IMG/VR virus record: IMGVR_UViG_2744054854_000003
Span: 1 to 24,011 of that record
From: a virus
Taxonomy: Duplodnaviria; Heunggongvirae; Uroviricota; Caudoviricetes
Length of the DNA: 24,011 bases
Strand: one strand, 5' to 3'
Shown: piece by piece, positions 2,772-12,015 of the stretch
Position numbering within the stretch: position 1 is the first letter of the stretch
Layout of the letters: the number at the start of each line of letters is the position of its first letter
Position numbers and translations under genes: made by a program
The notes under the pieces: generated by a model
Told to the model about the DNA's origin: nothing
Databases searched by the model: none
What the model saw: only the letters and a program-made list of their open reading frames with translations

Positions 2772-3469
2772 AGATTGCTTTAGTTTTTCGCTCTGGTGGT
2801 GACTATAACGCTTCCGATGTGCAGTGGCTGGTTAATCAACTGCCAAAAGGCTATGAAATTATTTGCCTGACAGACCTGAAGCGTTTACATGTACCTGGCG
2901 TCAAAGTTGTCCCATTGATCAACCAGTGGCAAAAGTGCCGTGGCTGGTGGGCGAAAATCGAGTTGTTCCGACCGGATATAACAGATGATCTGTTCTATCT
3001 GGATTTGGACACAGTTATTGCCGGTGATATACGCCCAATCCTTGAGAATCCACCAACCAGCTTCACCATGCTTAGGGATTTTTACCATCCACAATATCGT
3101 GGTAGCGGTGCCCTGTGGATACCAAATAGTGTAAAAGCGCATATCTGGAGTTCATTCTGGCAAGATCCGGAAGGTTGGATTTCTCGTTGTGTCACTACTG
3201 AGTGCTGGGGTGATCAGGGGTTCTTACGGAAGGTTATGGGCGATGATACACCAGCATTTCAGGATCTGTATCCAGGATGGTTTGTAAGTTACAAGGCCGA
3301 TGTTGTGGAACCTGGTTCAAAATATGCGAGCGCGCGTTACTCCAGGGGGAATGGGGCATTACCAAAGGACTGCCGAATAATCTTTTTCCACGGCAAACCG
3401 CGACCTCGCGAAGTGTCAGAGGATTGGCTTCCCCTTATTAGCTCGTTTTTTGAGCGAGAATCAGAATAA
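2768..3469 (+). CDS. Hypothetical protein (pmgQ position), possible glycosyltransferase-like DxD motif
   Basis: 233-aa ORF whose ATG overlaps the ppp stop (ATGA). Contains YLDLDTVI, reminiscent of a nucleotide-sugar transferase DxD motif; this is weak evidence. Confidence 0.55.
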
Positions 3470-3770: not shown

Positions 3771-5033
3771 ATGAGCACTTCAGCACAAAACCAATCAATC
3801 GAAAATGTATCTATCCCTGATGTCCTGAATGCCGGTATCCCGGCCATTATCCAGAACATCCGGGCCGCGCAACGCCGCGTTAGTTGTGATGACCTCACAG
3901 CACGTTTTTTTGATAATGCGGTTCAGTCAGCGGAGATGCTTCACGCACAGCTTATTGATGTTTATAACGCAGAAGCTGATAGCCATAACTCCCTGGTAGA
4001 TGCAGCTGAAAATATGCAGTTGGATCTCGGTCTGAAGGGTAAAGAAATTGAAGAGCTTCAGCTGGAAATTGAACATTTGAAACGCCAGCAACAGGACGCG
4101 ATCGACGATGCGACGCATGACGCCAACCAGCGTGCTGATAATGCCGAACGTATAAGCATTGAGCTGGAAACAAAACTCAATGAAATGACCGCGATGGTTG
4201 AACTGCGGAACTCACAGATTTCAACGCTAAAATCTCAATATAAAGAGATCATGAAACTTGATCCTTTTAACCTTGAGAAACGCTATAACAAAGCTAAAAG
4301 CGAGCGACAGGAACTGCGTAAGCAGGTCGCTGACCTTAACCAACAGCTCAAAAAAACTATTAAAGATGCAAGCGAAGCGCGCGTGGCATTTGCTAATAAA
4401 AAAGCAGAGGTTACTGCGCTGGTTAATGAGAATGCCAAATTTGCGACGCTCAAGAAGGAAATGTATGGCATTACTGAGCGCCGTTTCCCTGCAAGCAAAC
4501 TTCATCCGACGTTAGGGCAAATCTCCTTCTTCCCGCGCCTCCTGGCTTATGGGATCTCATCGCCTAAAGAGTTCAATAACGAGCGTCCTTATATCGTTTC
4601 TAAGCTGGACTTTGCTTATCAGTTCTGCTGCGACATGGGCTATGCCATTGATATCCGGATCAACGAATGGCTGATGCCAAACTTCCAGCCGTTGGCCATT
4701 TTCCGCGAGTTCCAGCCGGAAGGTTGGGTAGAGTTCTTCCATGAATTGATCTGTAAAGAGATGGAAAGCCGCCGCCCGGAACTGGTCCGTCGAGTTGAGT
4801 GGGCGCAAGAGGTTATGTTGGCAGAGGCAGAGCTGCCGTTCGAACCGGAATTTATTGATAATCTGGCAGCTAAAGGGCTGCATACCCTGTTTGATGTGGT
4901 TACCCGCCGTCATGAGCAGTTGGTTGTCGAATTGGGTTTAGAGGAAACAGCGGCAAGAAGACTTCTCGATGTTTGCTATGCACGTAGCGATGCATGGGAA
5001 AAAGAGAACGGCGGCACTATTTACGTTCGCTGA
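3771..5033 (+). CDS. Hypothetical protein with a coiled-coil-rich N-terminal half (420 aa)
   Basis: Long ORF with heptad-like charged composition in residues about 60-230 (LQLEIEHLKRQQQ..., QELRKQVADLNQQLKK). The C-terminal half is unrecognised. Confidence 0.6.
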   Translation: MSTSAQNQSIENVSIPDVLNAGIPAIIQNIRAAQRRVSCDDLTARFFDNAVQSAEMLHAQLIDVYNAEADSHNSLVDAAENMQLDLGLKGKEIEELQLEIEHLKRQQQDAIDDATHDANQRADNAERISIELETKLNEMTAMVELRNSQISTLKSQYKEIMKLDPFNLEKRYNKAKSERQELRKQVADLNQQLKKTIKDASEARVAFANKKAEVTALVNENAKFATLKKEMYGITERRFPASKLHPTLGQISFFPRLLAYGISSPKEFNNERPYIVSKLDFAYQFCCDMGYAIDIRINEWLMPNFQPLAIFREFQPEGWVEFFHELICKEMESRRPELVRRVEWAQEVMLAEAELPFEPEFIDNLAAKGLHTLFDVVTRRHEQLVVELGLEETAARRLLDVCYARSDAWEKENGGTIYVR

Positions 5034-5105
5034 TAGTTACAGTGTCACTTTTAATGCTGGTGGAGTGCTCCCACCAGCATTTTTTTCGTCCAATGAGGAG
5101 GGCAT

Positions 5106-5612
5106 TTGAGTATTTTCAATAAACACGCACACCAGGAACGTCCGTACATCGTCATAGTAGATATTGATGGGACGATATCAGAGGCAACGGAAGACAGGCT
5201 GCATTTACTTCCACCACCTGGCAAAGGTGCATTAACAGAGCACTGGAACGAGTTTAACCTTGCCTGTGACACTGATGCTCCCATCACTCCAGTTATTGAT
5301 ATGGTGCGCCAGTTATTTAACGTTTACACGGTCTGGTTTGTAACCGGGCGCTGTGAGATCGCAAGGGATAAAACACGAGCCTGGCTGCGGAAGTACGTAA
5401 CAAACGGGGCTGAGCCTTTGCTATCTATGCGTCCTGCCACCGATGACAGAAATGACGGTCCAGCAAAGATTGATCTCCTGAAGAAAATTGGTCTAAGTAA
5501 AATTGCGTTCGCGCTGGAAGATAAGATTGAAGTGGCGCGTGTGTTCAGGAGTCATGGCGTACTTACATTAATGGTCAGGGAGTATGAAAATGCGCTTCTT
5601 CATCAACAATAA
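5106..5612 (+). CDS. HAD-superfamily phosphatase-like protein
   Basis: TTG start preceded by GAGGAG with 6 nt spacing. N-terminal VIVDIDGTIS matches the HAD DxDG(T) motif I; motif II-like VWFVTGR follows. Possibly equivalent to P1 pap, by position. Confidence 0.6.
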   Translation: MSIFNKHAHQERPYIVIVDIDGTISEATEDRLHLLPPPGKGALTEHWNEFNLACDTDAPITPVIDMVRQLFNVYTVWFVTGRCEIARDKTRAWLRKYVTNGAEPLLSMRPATDDRNDGPAKIDLLKKIGLSKIAFALEDKIEVARVFRSHGVLTLMVREYENALLHQQ

Positions 5613-5628
5613 TTGTTCTAATAAATCT
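5612..5628 (+). promoter_or_regulatory. C1 operator-like site
   Basis: ATTGTTCTAATAAATCT, 15 of 17 matches to the consensus. It overlaps a possible -35 TTGATT (5627-5632) with a -10-like TAAAAA 17 bp downstream. Confidence 0.5.
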
Positions 5629-5650
5629 TGATTTTTAAAACAGAGAAAGT

Positions 5651-5683
5651 AAAAATAAAAACATGCCGCAAGGCGCGGCATGT
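5651..5683 (-). terminator. Rho-independent terminator, effective on the minus strand (hsdR operon end)
   Basis: 8-bp GC-rich stem CATGCCGC / GCGGCATG with a 5-nt loop. On the minus strand it is followed by a long U-run (plus-strand AAAAATAAAAA at 5651-5661); the plus-strand side has only TTT. Confidence 0.6.
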
Positions 5684-5710
5684 TTCCAATCAATCACAGG
5701 AGCTGAAAAT

Positions 5711-5797
5711 ATGAACACGGCATTCAAAATCATTATGGCCGCGATCTATTTCTGGCTGTTCTCTATCACTTTTGACGGCATCGTCGCGCATGGGTAA
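5711..5797 (+). CDS. Candidate small hydrophobic peptide (28 aa, MNTAFKIIMAAIYFWLFSITFDGIVAHG)
   Basis: ATG at 5711 with AGGAG at 5698-5702 (8 nt spacing). A single predicted transmembrane-length hydrophobic stretch. Below the ORF-track size cutoff; unproven. Confidence 0.3.
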   Translation: MNTAFKIIMAAIYFWLFSITFDGIVAHG

Positions 5798-5876
5798 GGG
5801 GAGTATATTAGCCATTTGGAACCCCACGAGCTCTTGCGGGTTTAATTAAGAACCCGCAAGAAAAACACGAATTGGG

Positions 5877-8800
5877 CTATATTTTTCCGCCTACGCCTTT
5901 AAACTTCTCAATAAACGAGACGATTTTCTGGAAAACTGCCTGTTTTTTCGTTTTATATTGCGGATTCAACGGACTAAGTTTTGGTAATGTTTCGTTTAAT
6001 TCTGTGCCATTTTCGGTGGCGTATTCGCGTTTTAAAGACGTGCGAATATAGCGTTTTGCTGCATCTTCATTGAGATTTTCTTCTTTTATCAATGCTTCTG
6101 CTTCACGTTGCTGTTCGCGTTGAGCAAACGTAAAGAATGCCTCAATGATACTGGCTTTGTCTGGTAAATCATCCAGGTTCGTTTGCTGAATAAAATCGAC
6201 CACCAGGCCCTCTTTCGCCCGGTTCCCCAGGCTTGAACGAATTAAGCGTTTGACCTCTTCGATCATTTCGCCCTTGCCTTTATTTTGTCTGTTGTGTTCG
6301 AAAATCAGTCCAAGGATATAATCCAGGTTTATTTCCTGAGACTTCAGCAAATCGACCTCAAAAACCACGTCATCCCAGTCAGTGGTTGATTTTTCTTTTT
6401 TATCAGCTTCTTTCTCGCGGCGCTGCCAGTCGCGAATATCGTTATAGGCAGAACGATAATCCTGAATCTTGCGATCAGCAGGGAGACGAATTGTTTGCAA
6501 TTCAGCGAACTTTTCATCATCCACATAATGTTCTGCTTTGAATTTTTCTACCGCAACAGGATCGCTAAGATCGATTTGTTGCAGGGCTTTTAGCGTGGCA
6601 AATTCATCATAGTTTTGCAGGATGTTCTCGGCACGCAGGTATTCGCCAAACAGTTTAACGAAGTCTTTCTTCTCTTTTTCACTTTCAATACTGGTAGGGT
6701 CAGGGAACCGTTGTTCCAGTTCTGAAACTACTGTCATGAAGCCGCGTTTAGCTTCACCAGTAGCAGCATCAGTAAAGCCTTCCATATACTCTGTATAACT
6801 CTTTTCTAACACCACATTTTTGGTGTTTTTGTCACCAAACAGCGTTATGGCATCAATAGTTGAGCGTTCCAGATCCCGGAAAGTGACGATATTACCGAAG
6901 GTTTTAGTTGCATCATAAATACGGTTGGTGCGGGAAAATGCCTGCATCAGGCCGTGAAAACGCAAGTTTTTATCGACGAATAGCGTGTTCAATGTTGGAG
7001 CATCGAAGCCGGTTAAAAACATCCCCACGACAATTAGCAGATCGATATCCTGATTTTTAACCCGCTGGGCTAAATCACGATAGTAGTTCTGAAAACCGTT
7101 ACTGTCGGTGCTGAAGTTAGTTTTAAAATGGCTGTTATATTCACGAATTGCAGCGTCCAGAAACTCTTTAGCACTGCTGTCCATTGCGCTGGTATCAAAA
7201 GTTTCATCGGAAATTTCACCAATGGCATTTTGTTCTTCATTAGCGGCAAAGGAGAAGATTGTCGCAACACGCAGCGGTTTATAGGTAGCCGATTTATTAG
7301 CGGCTTCCTCTTGTAACCGTTTAAACGTCGCATAATAGGCTTTTGCAGCATCCACGCTGCTTACTGCCAACATAGCATTAAAACCTTTTGAGCCAGGGAA
7401 GGTACGGTGGGTTTTCTGGCGGAAATTATTCAGAATATATTGCGTGATTTCCTGAATACGCATGGGATGAAGAAACGCCTGCTGATTTTCAGCCGCACTT
7501 AGTTTTTTCTCGTCAGTTTCTGTCTCTAAAGACTTAAACTGTGGCCGCACATCGTTGTAGTCCACCTTGAATTTGAGCACTTTTTCGTCACGAATCGCAT
7601 CGGTAATTACATACGAATGCAATTCACGACCAAATACGCTGGCGGTTGTTTCTGAGCCTAAGGCGTTTTCCGGGAAAATAGGGGTGCCGGTAAAACCAAA
7701 CTGATAATAGCGTTTGAATTTCTTCTTCAGGTTTTTCTGCGCTTCTCCAAACTGGCTGCGGTGGCATTCATCAAATATAAACACCACTTGCTGATTATAT
7801 ACAGGCAGGTCGCTTTCTGCTTTCATCAGGTTATTGAGTTTCTGAATAGTAGTGACGATAATTTTGTTATCGTCCTTATCCAGATTTCGTTTAAGGCCTG
7901 CGGTATTTTCCGAGCCGTTGACGCTGTCTGGCGAAAAACGCTGATATTCCTTCATGGTCTGGTAATCGAGGTCTTTCCTGTCGACCACAAAGAAGACTTT
8001 ATCAATAAAGTCCAGCTCTGTTGCCAGACGCGCGGCTTTAAAGCTGGTGAGGGTTTTACCAGAACCGGTAGTGTGCCAGATATACCCACCGCTTTCCGGT
8101 TTTGACCAGTTCTTCGCTGTAAAGGAACTCTTAATTTTCCACAGAATGCGCTCGGTGGCAGCAATCTGGTACGGTCGCATCACCAGTAGTGTCTGACTAC
8201 TGTCAAACACGCTGTAGTTCACCAGAACATTCAGCAGAGTATGTTTCTGGAAAAAGGTGGCGGTAAAGTCTTTGAGGTCTTTAATCAGCGTGTTGTCTGA
8301 TTTCGCCCAGTTCATGGTGAAGTCAAAACTGTTTTTATCGCGCTTTGTCGTGTTGGCAAAATAACGGGTATCGGTGCCGTTGGAAATGACGAACAGCTGC
8401 AGATACTTAAACAGGGAATTTTCGCTGTTAAAACTCTCTTTACTGTAACGATGTATCTGGTTGAAAGCCTCACGAATCGCCACCCCGCGTTTTTTTAGTT
8501 CGATTTGCACCAGCGGTAAACCATTAACCAGGATCGTGACGTCATAACGGTTAGCATGAGAACCCGTCTGTTCAAACTGCTGGATAATCTGCACCTTATT
8601 GCGCATGAGATTCTTTTTATCTATCAAATAGATGTTCTCAAGTCGCCCGTCGTCAAAAATAAAGTCGCAGATATAGTCGATATGGATTTTACGGGTTTTA
8701 TCCAGAATACCATCGCTGGGGTTGTCCAGATACTGCTCCGTGAAGCGCCGCCACTCGCTGTCATTAAACATCACACCATTGAGGCTCTGAAGCTGTTCCC

Positions 8801-8993
8801 GAACATTGGACAGCATTGCCGACTGTGATTTTACGGAAATAAATTCATAACCCTGATTCCGCAGGTCCTGAATCAGTTCACGTTCCAGGTCCGATTCGCT
8901 CTGGTAGCTGTCGCTTGTTTGCTCAGCTTTGATGTACTTATCAAGGACGATAAAGTTATTGGATTCAGCAATGGTGTGTGTTTGATGAGTCAT
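5877..8993 (-). CDS. hsdR: Type I restriction enzyme R subunit (1038 aa)
   Basis: Walker A ([12 protein letters not shown]) and DEAD-type box ([12 protein letters not shown]) helicase motifs. The length matches EcoR124I HsdR as I recall it. Has its own upstream intergenic region of 121 bp. Confidence 0.9.
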
Positions 8994-9114
8994 AGCGCAT
9001 CCTTTGTGCCGCCTGGCAAGAGCCGGAAGGGCGTTAAGAGTGACTTCCGGCGCGTAAAAAATAGTCTATATACTGACCGGGTGTTAAGGTGGCCCGATCG
9101 GTAGCAATGGTCAA

Positions 9115-10317
9115 TTAATTACTGACAGTTTCAGGTTTCGGGAAACTGAAAAGTAAATCACGGTAGTATTCGTATTGTTTCTGGCGCAACTCGATTTCAC
9201 GCGGAAGGCCTTCGGTGATGGAGTTTGTCAGGTTGTAAAATTTATCCATCGTGGCGACGATATAAAGTTGTTCATCGTATGATGGGATAGGTATTTCAAA
9301 TGCTCTCAACGATTTTAAACCTAAGTTTTTAATAGTTGAACCTGTTTTTTGATTTTCAAAATACTGTTTTGCGTAATTGGTTTGCAGGAAATAGAAAAGA
9401 TATCTAGTGTGGAGTTCAGGTGATTTAATTTTAAAATAGGCCACAGACTTACCGAGTACGATCTTCTCATTATTGTAAAAGGAAACATTTCCAATTGTGC
9501 CATTAATTGACAGGAAAACAGTATTTATTGGGTCAAAATGAATTCCGTGTTTTTTAAACATAGAATCATTAACCTTTTTTGTGTTATCGTTAAATGATAT
9601 TTTTTGATAGCCTAAATTGTTTCCATTGATAAAGAAATAATCACCGTTGGCGTCATATTCTGGAGTACCATGCAAACCGTCTCCAATTACACATAGCTCT
9701 CCTAATTTCAGACGTTTAACATCGTGGGCACCAAAACTAAATAACCGGTCGCGATAGTAGTTGTACTGTTTTTTACGCATGTTAAGCTCAGCGGTAAGCT
9801 CAGCGGTAAGTGCAGTAAATTTGTCCAGAATCCGAACGATTTCAGACTGGATGGCAAGGGATTTTTCCGGATTATCCGGGCAGGGGATTGGTACAGGTAT
9901 CTCAATTAATTGTCCTTTAGTTAATTTTGCCCTTCCTCCCCCGGTAAGGAAGGGAAGGAAATTAACGATGCATAAATAATGATATAGAAATCTAGAATGA
10001 ACTCTTTCTTTTCCTCGTACGACATGAACATGGTTGTTTGCCCAGAATTTACCAGTTGCATATTGAATTGAATAATTTTCTAAACTAGCCGAGCCATCTT
10101 CTGCAATTAAGACATATTCACCATCGTGGGTATATCCATCCACATAGTCTTGAATGTTGTTAGCACCATAATAGGGCGTCTCGCCTGCAATGCGCAAAGA
10201 GGCTTTTACTGGCTTTCTTCCATTATTCGCTATTTCGAAGAGTGAAGTATCACCAAGATTTCTCCACTCAACTTCAACCCCATCCAGCAATTTTTCCAGA
10301 TAACTTAACTCGCTCAT
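9115..10317 (-). CDS. hsdS: Type I R-M specificity subunit (400 aa), type IC-like
   Basis: Central conserved region with a TAELTAEL repeat, and the duplicated YYRD(R/L)LFSF motif at mid-protein and C-terminus, as in EcoR124-family HsdS. Its start overlaps the hsdM stop. Confidence 0.9.
9784..9816 (-). repeat. 12-bp tandem repeat (2 copies plus a degenerate third) encoding TAEL-TAEL in hsdS
   Basis: AAGCTCAGCGGT occurs twice (9784-9795 and 9796-9807), followed by AAGTGCAGT. The minus-strand translation is [11 protein letters not shown]. Confidence 0.85.
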
Positions 10318-11876
10318 TTCTGCACCTCGCAGCCTTCAATTTCAGCCACAATCGCATCAATATCTTTACGCAACAGGTCGATTTTGCTGACCGTGGTTTT
10401 CAGCTCTGCGTTCAACTCAGCAATATCGATAATTTCGCGGTTATCTTTCGCTTCCACATAGCTGCTCACCGACAGGTTATAGTCATTAGCGACAACGGTC
10501 TCAAACGCGACAGATTTCGCCAGATGAGCAACATCTTCCTTGCTGGCAAATACCTGCATAATCTGTTCGATATGGGCATCGGTCAGGGTATTGTTGTTAG
10601 TTTCTTTTTTAAACAGCTCGCTGGCATCAATAAACTGAACTTTGGTATCCGTTTTATGTTTAGACAGCACCAGAATGTTTACGGCAATAGTGGTGCCAAA
10701 GAACAGATTCGGTGCCAGTGAAATCACGGTTTCGACATAGTTATTGTCGACCAGATACTGACGGATTTTCTGCTCTGCGCCGCCACGGTAAAAAATACCC
10801 GGGAAGCAGACAATCGCAGCACGACCTTTGGCAGAAAGATAGTTCAGCGCATGTAGTACAAAGGCGAAGTCAGCTTTTGATTTGGGGGCCAGAACGCCAG
10901 CAGGGGCAAAACGTTCATCGTTAATCAGCGTCGGGTCATCACTGCCAATCCATTTCACCGAATATGGCGGGTTAGAAACGATGGCATCAAACGGTTTTTC
11001 ATCTCTGAAGTGCGGCTCAGTCAGCGTATTGCCCAGCTTGATATCAAACTTGTCGTAGTTGATGTTGTGCAAAAACATGTTCATACGCGCCAGGTTATAG
11101 GTCGTATGGTTGATCTCCTGACCAAAAAAGCCTTCTTCGATGATATGGTCATCAAACTGCTTTTTCGCCTGTAACAACAGCGAACCGGAACCTGCGGCTG
11201 GGTCGTAGATTTTGTTAACGTGGGTCTGCCCGTGCATAGCCAGTTGTGCAATCAGCTTAGAGACATGCTGCGGTGTAAAAAACTCGCCGCCTGACTTACC
11301 AGCATTCGCCGCATAGTTAGAAATCAGGAACTCATAGGCATCGCCGAACAGGTCAATCTGATGTTCGTTGAAGTCACCAAGTTTTAACCCTTCAACCCCT
11401 TTCAGAACCGCAGCCAGGCGGGCATTTTTATCCTTAACGGTGTTACCCAGGCGGTTACTGGTGGTATCGAAATCAGCAAACAAACCTTTGATGTCAGCTT
11501 CTGAAGGGTAACCGTAAGCAGAACTTTCGATAGCAACGAAGATACTGTTTAAATCTGCATTCAGTCTGTCATTGGTATTTGCTTTCGCAGCTACGTTGCA
11601 GAAAAGCTGACTTGGGTAGATGAAGTAGCCTTTAGTTTTGATGGCATCGTCTTTAATGTCATCAGTAATTACGCTGTCATCCAGTTTCGCATAACAGATA
11701 CTGTCATCACCGGCTTCAATATAGCTGGAAAAATTTTCGCTGATAAAACGGTAGAAAAGTGCGCCCAGAACGTATTGCTTAAAATCCCATCCATCGACCG
11801 AACCCCTGACATCGTTAGCAATTTGCCAGATTTGACGATGAAGCTCTGCACGTTGTTGAATACTTGTCATTTTCAT
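10314..11876 (-). CDS. hsdM: Type I R-M N6-adenine DNA methyltransferase subunit (520 aa)
   Basis: NPPY motif (SNPPYSVKW), AdoMet-binding glycine-rich motif ([10 protein letters not shown]), and a typical HsdM N-terminus. The length matches EcoR124I HsdM as recalled. Confidence 0.9.
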
Positions 11877-12015
11877 CCACTTATTTCAGGCTTATGTAAT
11901 TGGATGTGATTCTACAGCAACTTGGATGCTTTAGCAGTTCGGACATTAGGCTACGAATGACCTGCCTAGAGGTTTGTTAAGCCGCAAAGTGCTGGTGCTT
12001 TATGCCTGTGAAGTT

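Follow-up and report, generated by a model that had tools for sequence, protein, structure and literature searches.

The closest described counterpart of the locus considered here is the Op88/OpmgT unit of phage P1 (pmgT-pmgU-pmgV; AF234172 / NC_005856), which is headed by an operator for the C1 repressor at the pap stop codon and by two predicted promoters (PpmgT) that its GenBank record places at the Op88 site. Neither pap nor pmgT/U/V is needed for P1 plaque formation (PMC10695390), and pmgT-humD is a variable region in surveys of P1-like elements (PMC9603915, PMC6906374). The window, by which we mean the whole 24,011-nt stretch of DNA that was analyzed, is a P1-type phage-plasmid and has the same operator sequence at the same position, together with the predicted promoters, a hairpin, and a 28-codon ORF identical to that of P1 bar one residue, G22D here. 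It differs from P1 in what follows, since an hsd cassette stands in for pmgT-humD and the ORF is the only cistron behind the promoter. The P1 reference carries no annotation of this ORF, and in the literature on Op88 and pmgT we found nothing concerning it.

The cassette resembles the type IC systems EcoR124I and EcoDXXI in that its HsdR is essentially identical to the crystallized EcoR124I HsdR, its genes come in the same order, and a promoter-like site lies in the hsdS-hsdR gap, but here its host is a P1-type phage-plasmid, in which it is flanked by the small ORF and phd-doc. According to the P1 record itself, the P1 stretch in question follows hsdR in both R124/3 and the EcoDXXI locus. The ORF product can be compared with KdpF, AcrZ, MgrB, and MgtS, small single-pass membrane proteins of enterobacteria, which it resembles in size, in its one hydrophobic helix, in a short polar N-terminus with one lysine, and in being encoded by the first or accessory cistron of an operon, although it is homologous to none of them. 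With the type I toxin-antitoxin systems (hok/sok, ldr/rdl, ibs/sib, tisB/istR, shoB/ohsC), the locus shares a transmembrane-length peptide of fewer than 60 aa behind a strong Shine-Dalgarno sequence and a predicted antisense transcript over the translation initiation region. The features on which these comparisons rest are the following, in window coordinates.

3771-5033: pmgS, upstream of pap.
5106-5612, + strand: pap (3'-phosphatase/5'-polynucleotide kinase-like by P1 annotation), its product 97.6% identical to P1 Pap (tblastn); the last conserved backbone gene upstream.
5612-5628, + strand: C1 repressor operator Op88/OpmgT (ATTGTTCTAATAAATCT) at the pap stop codon; annotated operator 84293-84309 of P1.
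5628-5656, + strand: predicted sigma-70 promoter P1pmgT, with -35 TTGATT at 5628-5633, a 17-bp spacer, and -10 AAAAAT at 5651-5656; a prediction of the P1 GenBank record.
5659-5669 and 5675-5685: arms of a hairpin with an 11-bp perfect stem and a 5-nt loop, with a minus-strand T-run at 5648-5658; intrinsic-terminator-like for hsdR.
5698-5702, + strand: Shine-Dalgarno sequence AGGAG, 8 nt 5' of ATG 5711, within the motif AATCA(C/T)(A/C)GGAGC that is kept across lineages.
5711-5797, + strand: small ORF, ATG 5711-5713 to TAA 5795-5797, product MNTAFKIIMAAIYFWLFSITFDGIVAHG, a predicted single-pass membrane peptide and a rare G22D variant.
5801-5802: left junction between P1 backbone and hsd cassette; P1 homology ends at 5801, and after GGGTAAGGGG either pmgT-type or hsd-type sequence follows.
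5832-5842 and 5851-5861: perfect 11-bp inverted repeat TCTTGCGGGTT / AACCCGCAAGA in the cassette, 16 nt past the hsdR stop; neither strand has a T-run.
5877-8993, - strand: hsdR, EcoR124I-type (type IC), 1038 aa; TIGR00348 at 770 bits and a full-length match to PDB 2W00 at 2287 bits.
9115-10317, - strand: hsdS, with weak S-subunit matches.
10314-11876, - strand: hsdM, TIGR00497.
11970-11980: right junction; from about 11977 the sequence is again homologous to P1, immediately before Pphd / phd-doc.

Coding status of the 28-codon ORF

A sequence-only reading of the window had described an unannotated ORF running from ATG 5711 to TAA 5797 with AGGAG 8 nt upstream and a hydrophobic, transmembrane-length product, and the sequence bears out the 28 codons, the peptide, and the spacing of exactly 8 nt. 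The best 19-residue Kyte-Doolittle mean of the 28-aa product is 1.94, against 2.10 for the consensus G22 form, a comparison of sequence properties only. That reading had also conceded that an ORF of this length may arise by chance, which is correct for length alone, given that, when the 264-nt intergenic region is shuffled with dinucleotides preserved, 69% of the shuffles contain an ATG ORF of at least 28 codons, but fails once more is required: the share falls to 5% with a Shine-Dalgarno sequence and to 0.02% with a transmembrane-like 19-residue hydrophobic stretch as well. The word "unannotated" fits the P1 reference, in which there is no CDS at this place, but not SJ46 (a 44-aa "membrane protein"), phi456 (Orf75), or a 28-aa NCBI protein. 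We rejected the 44-aa form annotated in SJ46 and phi456, because its ATG (5663) falls within the hairpin, where transcription is predicted to begin, and no Shine-Dalgarno sequence precedes it. In the record of the Cronobacter phage JK004 the homolog is started too late, as a 38-aa product from an internal Met. Searches of Pfam, PHROGs, and NCBIfam with the 28-aa and 44-aa forms returned noise only, with no match better than E = 0.1.

The evidence we consider decisive for coding status is the persistence of both frame and layout in divergent relatives. JK004, with a Pap 72% identical, and the metagenomic contigs L124-L127 all have the succession of operator, promoter, hairpin, GGAG motif, ATG, and small ORF, with a predicted promoter whose -35 is TTGATT or TTGTTT and whose -10, after 17 bp of spacer, follows the pattern NANAAT (AATAAT in JK004, CAGAAT in L124-L126, and AAGAAT in L127). 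The ORFs of these relatives encode 48-53 aa, and the first ~24 residues align without gaps to the P1 peptide, which lacks the 25-30-aa hydrophilic tail of the JK004, L124, and L127 homologs. In the alignment of P1-type and 53-aa sequences, M1, K6, A11, and W15 never vary, WLFS is common to the P1 peptide and L124, and BLASTP gives 3e-4. The two types are bridged by P0026 (MNTAFKLAMAAFYFWIFCIAFNGLV...), and the 48-aa bridging form starts MNTAFKLAMAAFYFWIF. Between P1 and the relatives the DNA has diverged to saturation (dS > 1), while among the three 53-aa ORFs compared (JK004, L124, and L125) dN/dS is 0.22-0.39. The stop codon of the 48-53-aa ORFs overlaps the ATG of the next gene. A profile search of 1.84 billion representative proteins gave 9 representatives at E <= 0.001, with no functional annotation among them.

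Among the P1-type elements we collected 103 loci from IMG/VR, anchored on pap so as to leave the ORF region unbiased. The ORF is intact, with no frameshift or premature stop, in 101 of them, and in the remaining 2 it is truncated, a different sequence being joined at about 5768. Pooled over these loci there are 9 synonymous and 11 nonsynonymous variants where 26% synonymous would be expected, a marginal excess (p = 0.05). The sequence-only reading had proposed looking for a conserved frame and a synonymous bias in relatives, and both are there, in the dN/dS of the divergent ORFs and in the codon-position contrast described below, with the pooled excess the marginal part of the answer. Taken together, the comparisons make it very likely that the ORF is a genuine gene for a small membrane peptide.

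The cargo boundary and the constraint on the peptide

P1, P7, SJ46, and related phages match the window over 5562-5801 at 95-98% identity, and the match ends 4 nt past the ORF stop, which places the ORF at the junction of phage backbone and restriction-modification cassette just as the sequence-only reading had located it. What takes the place of pmgT-humD is a reverse-oriented EcoR124-type hsdMSR cassette at about 5802-11976, a member of the type IC systems by its TIGR00348 and TIGR00497 matches above cut-off and by its gene order hsdM-hsdS-hsdR. The inverted repeat inside this cassette had likewise been noticed earlier as perfect and free of a U-run, and so it is, but it lies at 5832-5861 and not at 5838-5865, a displacement of about 5 nt.

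The pairing of ORF and hsdR is one of several arrangements at this boundary. In 81 IMG/VR loci, the sequence 3' of the ORF is a P1-type pmgT in 23, an SJ46/P7-type gene with the same N-terminus in 35, the hsdR cassette in 20, and something odd in 3, and all downstream types diverge 4-5 nt past the TAA. Breakpoints at the left boundary range from codon 18 to 4 nt past the ORF stop. The ORF is present without hsdR in 58/81 of these loci. In PLSDB, where 870 plasmids match the query, 257 have the pap-ORF-hsdR arrangement, and in another class, of conjugative plasmids, the match begins only at window position 5718. In the one IncF plasmid of that class examined, IS1 abuts the 5718 point and the same hsdR lies beside an ORF stump that has neither Shine-Dalgarno sequence nor ATG. 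The IncF copies of the cassette differ from that of the window in retaining only an 84-bp stump of P1 sequence next to IS1.

The peptide itself varies with its neighbor. Next to pmgT-like genes it has the consensus sequence in 73 of 76 loci, with nucleotide diversity (pi) of 0.0015 at codon positions 1+2 and 0.023 at position 3, a 16-fold difference, against 0.049 in pap. Next to hsdR the consensus is found in 10 of 28 loci, and pi is 0.028 at positions 1+2, 0.037 at position 3, and 0.050 in pap. Replacements thus occur in 18/28 hsdR-side loci versus 3/76 on the pmgT side (2e-10 by a Fisher's test that ignores kinship among loci), while counts of distinct variants give a nonsynonymous:synonymous ratio that is similar in both contexts (8:8 beside hsdR and 3:4 beside pmgT-like genes). 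G22D, the state of the window, is one of the hsd-context replacements and puts a charge within the hydrophobic segment. The peptide appears to be less constrained beside hsdR, and its constraint appears, from these comparisons, to be linked to whether pmgT-like genes follow it.

Superimposed on this contrast is an island of low diversity at 5657-5767, comprising the hairpin, the Shine-Dalgarno sequence, and codons 1-19, in which pi among P1-type loci is 0.005-0.02 versus 0.05-0.06 in the flanks, the last nine codons of the ORF included. Synonymous sites within the island are nearly invariant, and protein coding alone does not account for its low diversity. It could reflect RNA-level constraint, or it could be a homogenized recombination arm, an explanation suggested by the low diversity of the phd-doc flank as well. 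We had at first read the island as evidence of an RNA-level function, and we gave up that reading since the phd-doc flank is also low and the ORFs of the JK004 group show no consistent synonymous constraint.

If the island were the whole story, the region might be nothing but a noncoding leader, be it the early operon's structured 5' UTR or a recombination arm, in which the ORF is incidental and has no functional product. Conservation that reaches synonymous sites in P1-type elements, a phd-doc flank across the variable region that is also low in diversity, as homogenized recombination arms would be, the marginal pooled synonymous excess, and the fact that the annotators of the P1 reference did not call the ORF would all agree with this. 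We nevertheless think it unlikely, because the frame, the start, the GGAG, and the hydrophobic N-terminus with its four invariant residues have persisted where synonymous sites are saturated, because dN/dS is low over 53 codons in the relatives, because third positions in pmgT-type contexts are so much more diverse than first and second positions, and because the overlap of the relatives' stop with the next start is what translationally coupled operons show.

The hairpin and the antisense geometry

The hairpin between promoter and ORF can be read on either strand. Its minus-strand reading continues into TTTTTATTTTTAC and has the stem-loop and U-tract of a predicted rho-independent terminator: a terminator scan returns a stem-loop-stem at 5688-5656 with 15 pairs (G-T allowed) and the tail TTTTTACTTT, and the minus-strand RNA of 5645-5695 folds at -20.7 kcal/mol (z = -6.05). 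Nothing else between the hsdR stop (5877) and pap looks like a terminator, and we found no + strand terminator between the ORF and hsdR. The sequence-only reading had assigned the end of the hsdR transcript to a minus-strand terminator here and the hsdR 3' region to the antisense strand of the ORF, and both assignments agree with the predicted geometry, in which a transcript ending at the hairpin would cover the whole ORF.

On the + strand, the same hairpin coincides with or closely adjoins the predicted +1 of the early mRNA. In P1-type loci most changes are in the loop and the stem persists. Four unrelated stem sequences (CATGCCGC, GGCCGC, TGGCAGTCAC, and AAGGCCAC) occupy the same site across lineages, and in all five lineages the distance from the -10 hexamer to the start of the stem is 0-7 nt. 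Between the stems of L124 and L125 there is one A-U to G-C double change, and single stem changes that keep G-U pairing favor the + strand RNA by 5 to 1, a count that is suggestive only. The minus-strand T-run after the stem is confined to the P1 group and is absent in JK004, L124-L126, and L127, which retain ORF and hairpin. Apart from the hairpin, the + strand leader does not fold unusually (z about -0.8). For the island by itself z is -2.1 (minus strand) and -1.0 (plus strand); the two hairpins drive the minus-strand z-scores, and the energies assign no strand. We infer from the lineage comparison that the conserved role of the hairpin is that of a 5'-proximal stem-loop of the early mRNA, and that reverse termination of hsdR would be a by-product in the P1 group, where the A-rich -10 region provides a U-tract on the other strand. 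Stem-loops of the ompA type at the 5' terminus stabilize mRNA, RNase E and RppH being 5'-end dependent. The hairpin is like them in its stability, in its position after the -10, and in the turnover of its stem sequence with the structure kept; it differs in that the P1-group DNA has a second reading, as an intrinsic terminator, on the opposite strand and in that the start site here is a predicted one.

The small membrane peptide and its antisense overlap invite the interpretation put forward in the sequence-only reading, that the locus resembles a type I toxin-antitoxin module. In such a module the peptide would be a membrane toxin and its mRNA would be neutralized by the hsdR 3' UTR or by a dedicated short antisense RNA ending at 5659-5685. 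The small, hydrophobic, transmembrane-length peptide and its strong Shine-Dalgarno sequence suit this interpretation, and with a strong predicted terminator 10 nt upstream of the Shine-Dalgarno sequence any minus-strand transcript would cover the translation initiation region. It also gains from the nucleotide-level conservation of 5657-5767, synonymous sites included, which extends from the terminator to ~30 nt upstream of a minus-strand CATAAT (5737-5732), and from the minus-strand RNA of 5648-5770, which folds better than shuffles (z = -4.4), largely owing to the terminator. The resemblance does not hold beyond this point. If the two were partners they should be inherited together, but about 70% of P1-type loci have the ORF without hsdR, and on the IncF plasmid hsdR stands beside an IS1-truncated ORF. 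The ORF is also older than its link to hsdR: it occupies the corresponding position in P1, P7, and SJ46, as well as in divergent P1-like phages where no minus-strand gene follows, and the minus-strand U-tract is missing from the lineages named above despite ORF and hairpin. The sole predicted antisense transcript is the hsdR 3' UTR, which exists in hsd-type elements only.

A dedicated antisense RNA fares no better. A generic scan of 5000-6500 in the window and in P1 returned no minus-strand sigma-70 promoter, although a weak, non-consensus one might escape such a scan; the CATAAT at 5737-5732, inspected by eye, has no usable -35 and no TG extension; and a search for the -22 box of P1 late promoters yielded no candidate that had a usable -10. 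Comparison of 5300-6200 with Rfam (E <= 10) gave noise only, with no antitoxin RNA or other family at gathering score, and the peptide matches none of the described toxin families (Hok/Gef, Ldr, Ibs, ShoB, TisB, DinQ, Zor, and Fst among them) in Pfam, NCBIfam, or PHROG. The C1 operator overlapping the promoter predicts silence in the lysogen, the opposite of a post-segregational toxin, and this predicted repressor control contrasts with the constitutive toxin transcription of type I systems. A functional toxin paired with hsdR should, moreover, be conserved beside hsdR, and it is there that the peptide appears less constrained and replacements have accumulated, the charged G22D among them, which argues against a toxin-antitoxin function. 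The locus thus differs from the known systems in its partners, which are not co-inherited, in having no antisense RNA gene or promoter that we could find, in matching no sequence or RNA family, and in the relaxed constraint seen in the supposed toxin-antitoxin context. We hold this interpretation to be highly improbable.

The same geometry could serve regulation. Transcription from the induced early promoter would run head-on into hsdR and might lower the restriction subunit, or read-through from hsdR might dampen the early promoter. The two units converge with an overlap of at least about 230 nt, no + strand terminator separates them, and promoter, operator, and Shine-Dalgarno sequence are retained in hsd-type elements. 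The basis of such an antisense switch is purely geometric, however, any reverse-oriented cassette in this hot spot would yield the arrangement automatically, and the IncF copies of the cassette function without it. Newly replicated hemimethylated DNA is not known to be a target of type I restriction, and there is thus no evident need for the switch, which we consider very unlikely. A related thought, that the orphan peptide gene and hsdR have by accident become a functional reciprocal antisense pair, would have hsdR read-through to the hairpin, in the lysogen, occlude the early promoter and mask any leaky peptide mRNA and would have induction couple the lysis-lysogeny switch to the restriction subunits; we regard it as a very long shot. 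If it were true and the peptide were toxic to membranes, the outcome would be a chimeric, type I toxin-antitoxin-like link between a restriction-modification cassette and a prophage.

A probable peptide gene in the C1-controlled early operon

The control region upstream of the ORF belongs to the P1 backbone. The Op88 site has 2 mismatches relative to the 17-bp C1 consensus ATTGCTCTAATAAATTT and a position identical to that annotated in P1, it is one of 9 C1-operator-like sites in the window where 0.11 would be expected, and an operator is conserved at this position in all five lineages. The predicted TTGATT-17-AAAAAT promoter, the -35 of which overlaps the operator, falls below the threshold of a generic promoter scan; equivalent hexamers at the same spacing recur in the four other lineages. 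By synteny the ORF comes directly after pmgS-pap, and it is followed by pmgT-like genes in 58/81 related loci and by the hsd cassette here. A Pap search of genome contigs returned at least 2 matches, which are near-identical E. coli loci.

On balance, the ORF is probably a real P1-family backbone gene for a single-pass membrane peptide, the first cistron of the C1/Op88-controlled early ("pmgT") operon, that has been orphaned by the cassette, with the overlap incidental. In a lysogen, C1 bound at Op88 would cover the overlapping -35 and keep the operon, and with it the peptide, off. Upon induction or infection, transcription would start at about 5660-5664, giving an early mRNA with a stable stem-loop at or very near its 5' end, probably a 5' stabilizer or leader element, and the AGGAG would direct translation of the peptide, with its predicted insertion in the membrane. 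In P1 proper, where the ORF stop overlaps the pmgT Shine-Dalgarno sequence and pmgT starts 10 nt after that stop, ribosomes would terminate 10 nt before the pmgT ATG, and in the relatives with 48-53-aa products they would do so where the ORF stop overlaps the ATG of the next gene. In the window, the exchange of pmgT-humD for an opposite-strand EcoR124-type hsdMSR cassette leaves the peptide gene an orphan, and hsdR transcription would run antisense across it, most likely to end at the same hairpin. The most plausible account of the overlap with antisense hsdR transcription is that it came about as a by-product of insertion into a known hot spot.

The immediate gain is one of annotation, since a conserved gene for a small membrane peptide heads the early operon of P1 and its relatives and is missing from the P1 reference. 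The current understanding of toxin-antitoxin or restriction biology is unchanged by it, but the locus illustrates that the geometry of a small hydrophobic ORF with an antisense transcript can arise simply through cassette insertion. Further, a major hot spot of cargo exchange in P1-type phage-plasmids has its exact left boundary at the ORF. As to what the peptide does, PmgT, the SJ46-type gene, and the downstream genes of JK004 contain no Pfam domain and so give no clue to the function of the operon, but the contrast in constraint with and without pmgT-like neighbors hints that the peptide works with those genes or that their expression needs it.

The operator-promoter-hairpin-ORF unit in P1-type loci and divergent relatives

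Across 103 P1-type loci, window positions 5657-5767 have a very low nucleotide diversity (pi 0.005-0.02), whereas pi is about 0.05 in pap, in the promoter and in the last nine codons of the small ORF, the 28-codon predicted membrane-peptide gene. The low diversity extends to synonymous sites, and either an RNA-level constraint or homogenisation of a recombination arm could be its cause.

In the divergent metagenomic contig L127, pap is wholly absent, and the operator, promoter, hairpin and ORF (2834-3000) directly follow pmgS; the unit is therefore independent of pap. The annotated start of JK004_94 in Cronobacter phage JK004 is an internal Met giving 38 aa, while the conserved ORF, with a GGAG site, starts 45 nt further upstream and encodes 53 aa (L123 3087-3248). 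The hairpins compared outside the P1 type were as follows.

L123 (Cronobacter phage JK004), 3025-3075
L124 (divergent P1-like contig)
L125/L126 (divergent P1-like contigs)
L127 (divergent P1-like contig), 2940-2975

The three non-P1 hairpins that these loci carry have similar 9-nt loops (ACGCUAUCA, GCACUACCA and GCGCUUCCA) on unrelated stems, a resemblance that hints at a loop-specific contact.

Minus-strand features and the hsdR flank

Three further features lie on the hsdR strand or beside the hsdR gene.

5635-5733, minus strand, 32-codon hydrophobic ORF (MILNAVFIFSAPVIDWKHAAPCGMFLFLLSLF), running antisense across both the hairpin and the SD
5832-5861, 11-bp inverted repeat without mismatches, loop of 8 nt, located downstream of the hsdR stop at a distance of 16 nt
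9058-9087, minus strand, promoter-like site (TTAACA-18-TATTTT) in the hsdS-hsdR gap

The 32-codon ORF lacks an SD and probably arises as an artefact, a mirror image of the sense ORF's own hydrophobic sequence. Since a U-run on the hsdR strand precedes rather than follows the inverted repeat, the repeat forms a canonical terminator in neither orientation; it accompanies the hsd cassette onto conjugative plasmids. The promoter-like site would fit with separate transcription of hsdR from a promoter of its own.

Breakpoints and the hsd cassette on conjugative plasmids

The 3' end of the small ORF (window 5768-5801) is itself a breakpoint zone. Depending on the element, unrelated tails are joined to it after codon 18 or 19, or after codon 25, and in some elements the stop codon is replaced by an unrelated tail that directly follows codon 28. 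Sequences of the hsd and pmgT-type contexts part from each other 4-5 nt past the stop.

P0007, P0009, P0014, P0019 and P0027: proteins in which this breakpoint zone was seen

In many conjugative plasmids the match to the window begins only at 5718, such that the P1 backbone beside their EcoR124-type hsdR is just an 84-bp stump (window 5718-5801). In the one plasmid examined for this, the IncF plasmid L005 (NZ_CP029580.1, 5249-6183), IS1 adjoins the stump. Homologies to R124/3 and EcoDXXI are already recorded in the P1 GenBank entry. The P1 stump beside hsdR and the IS1 abutting it imply that this classical plasmid R-M locus, of the EcoR124 type, came from a P1-type phage-plasmid by mobilisation.
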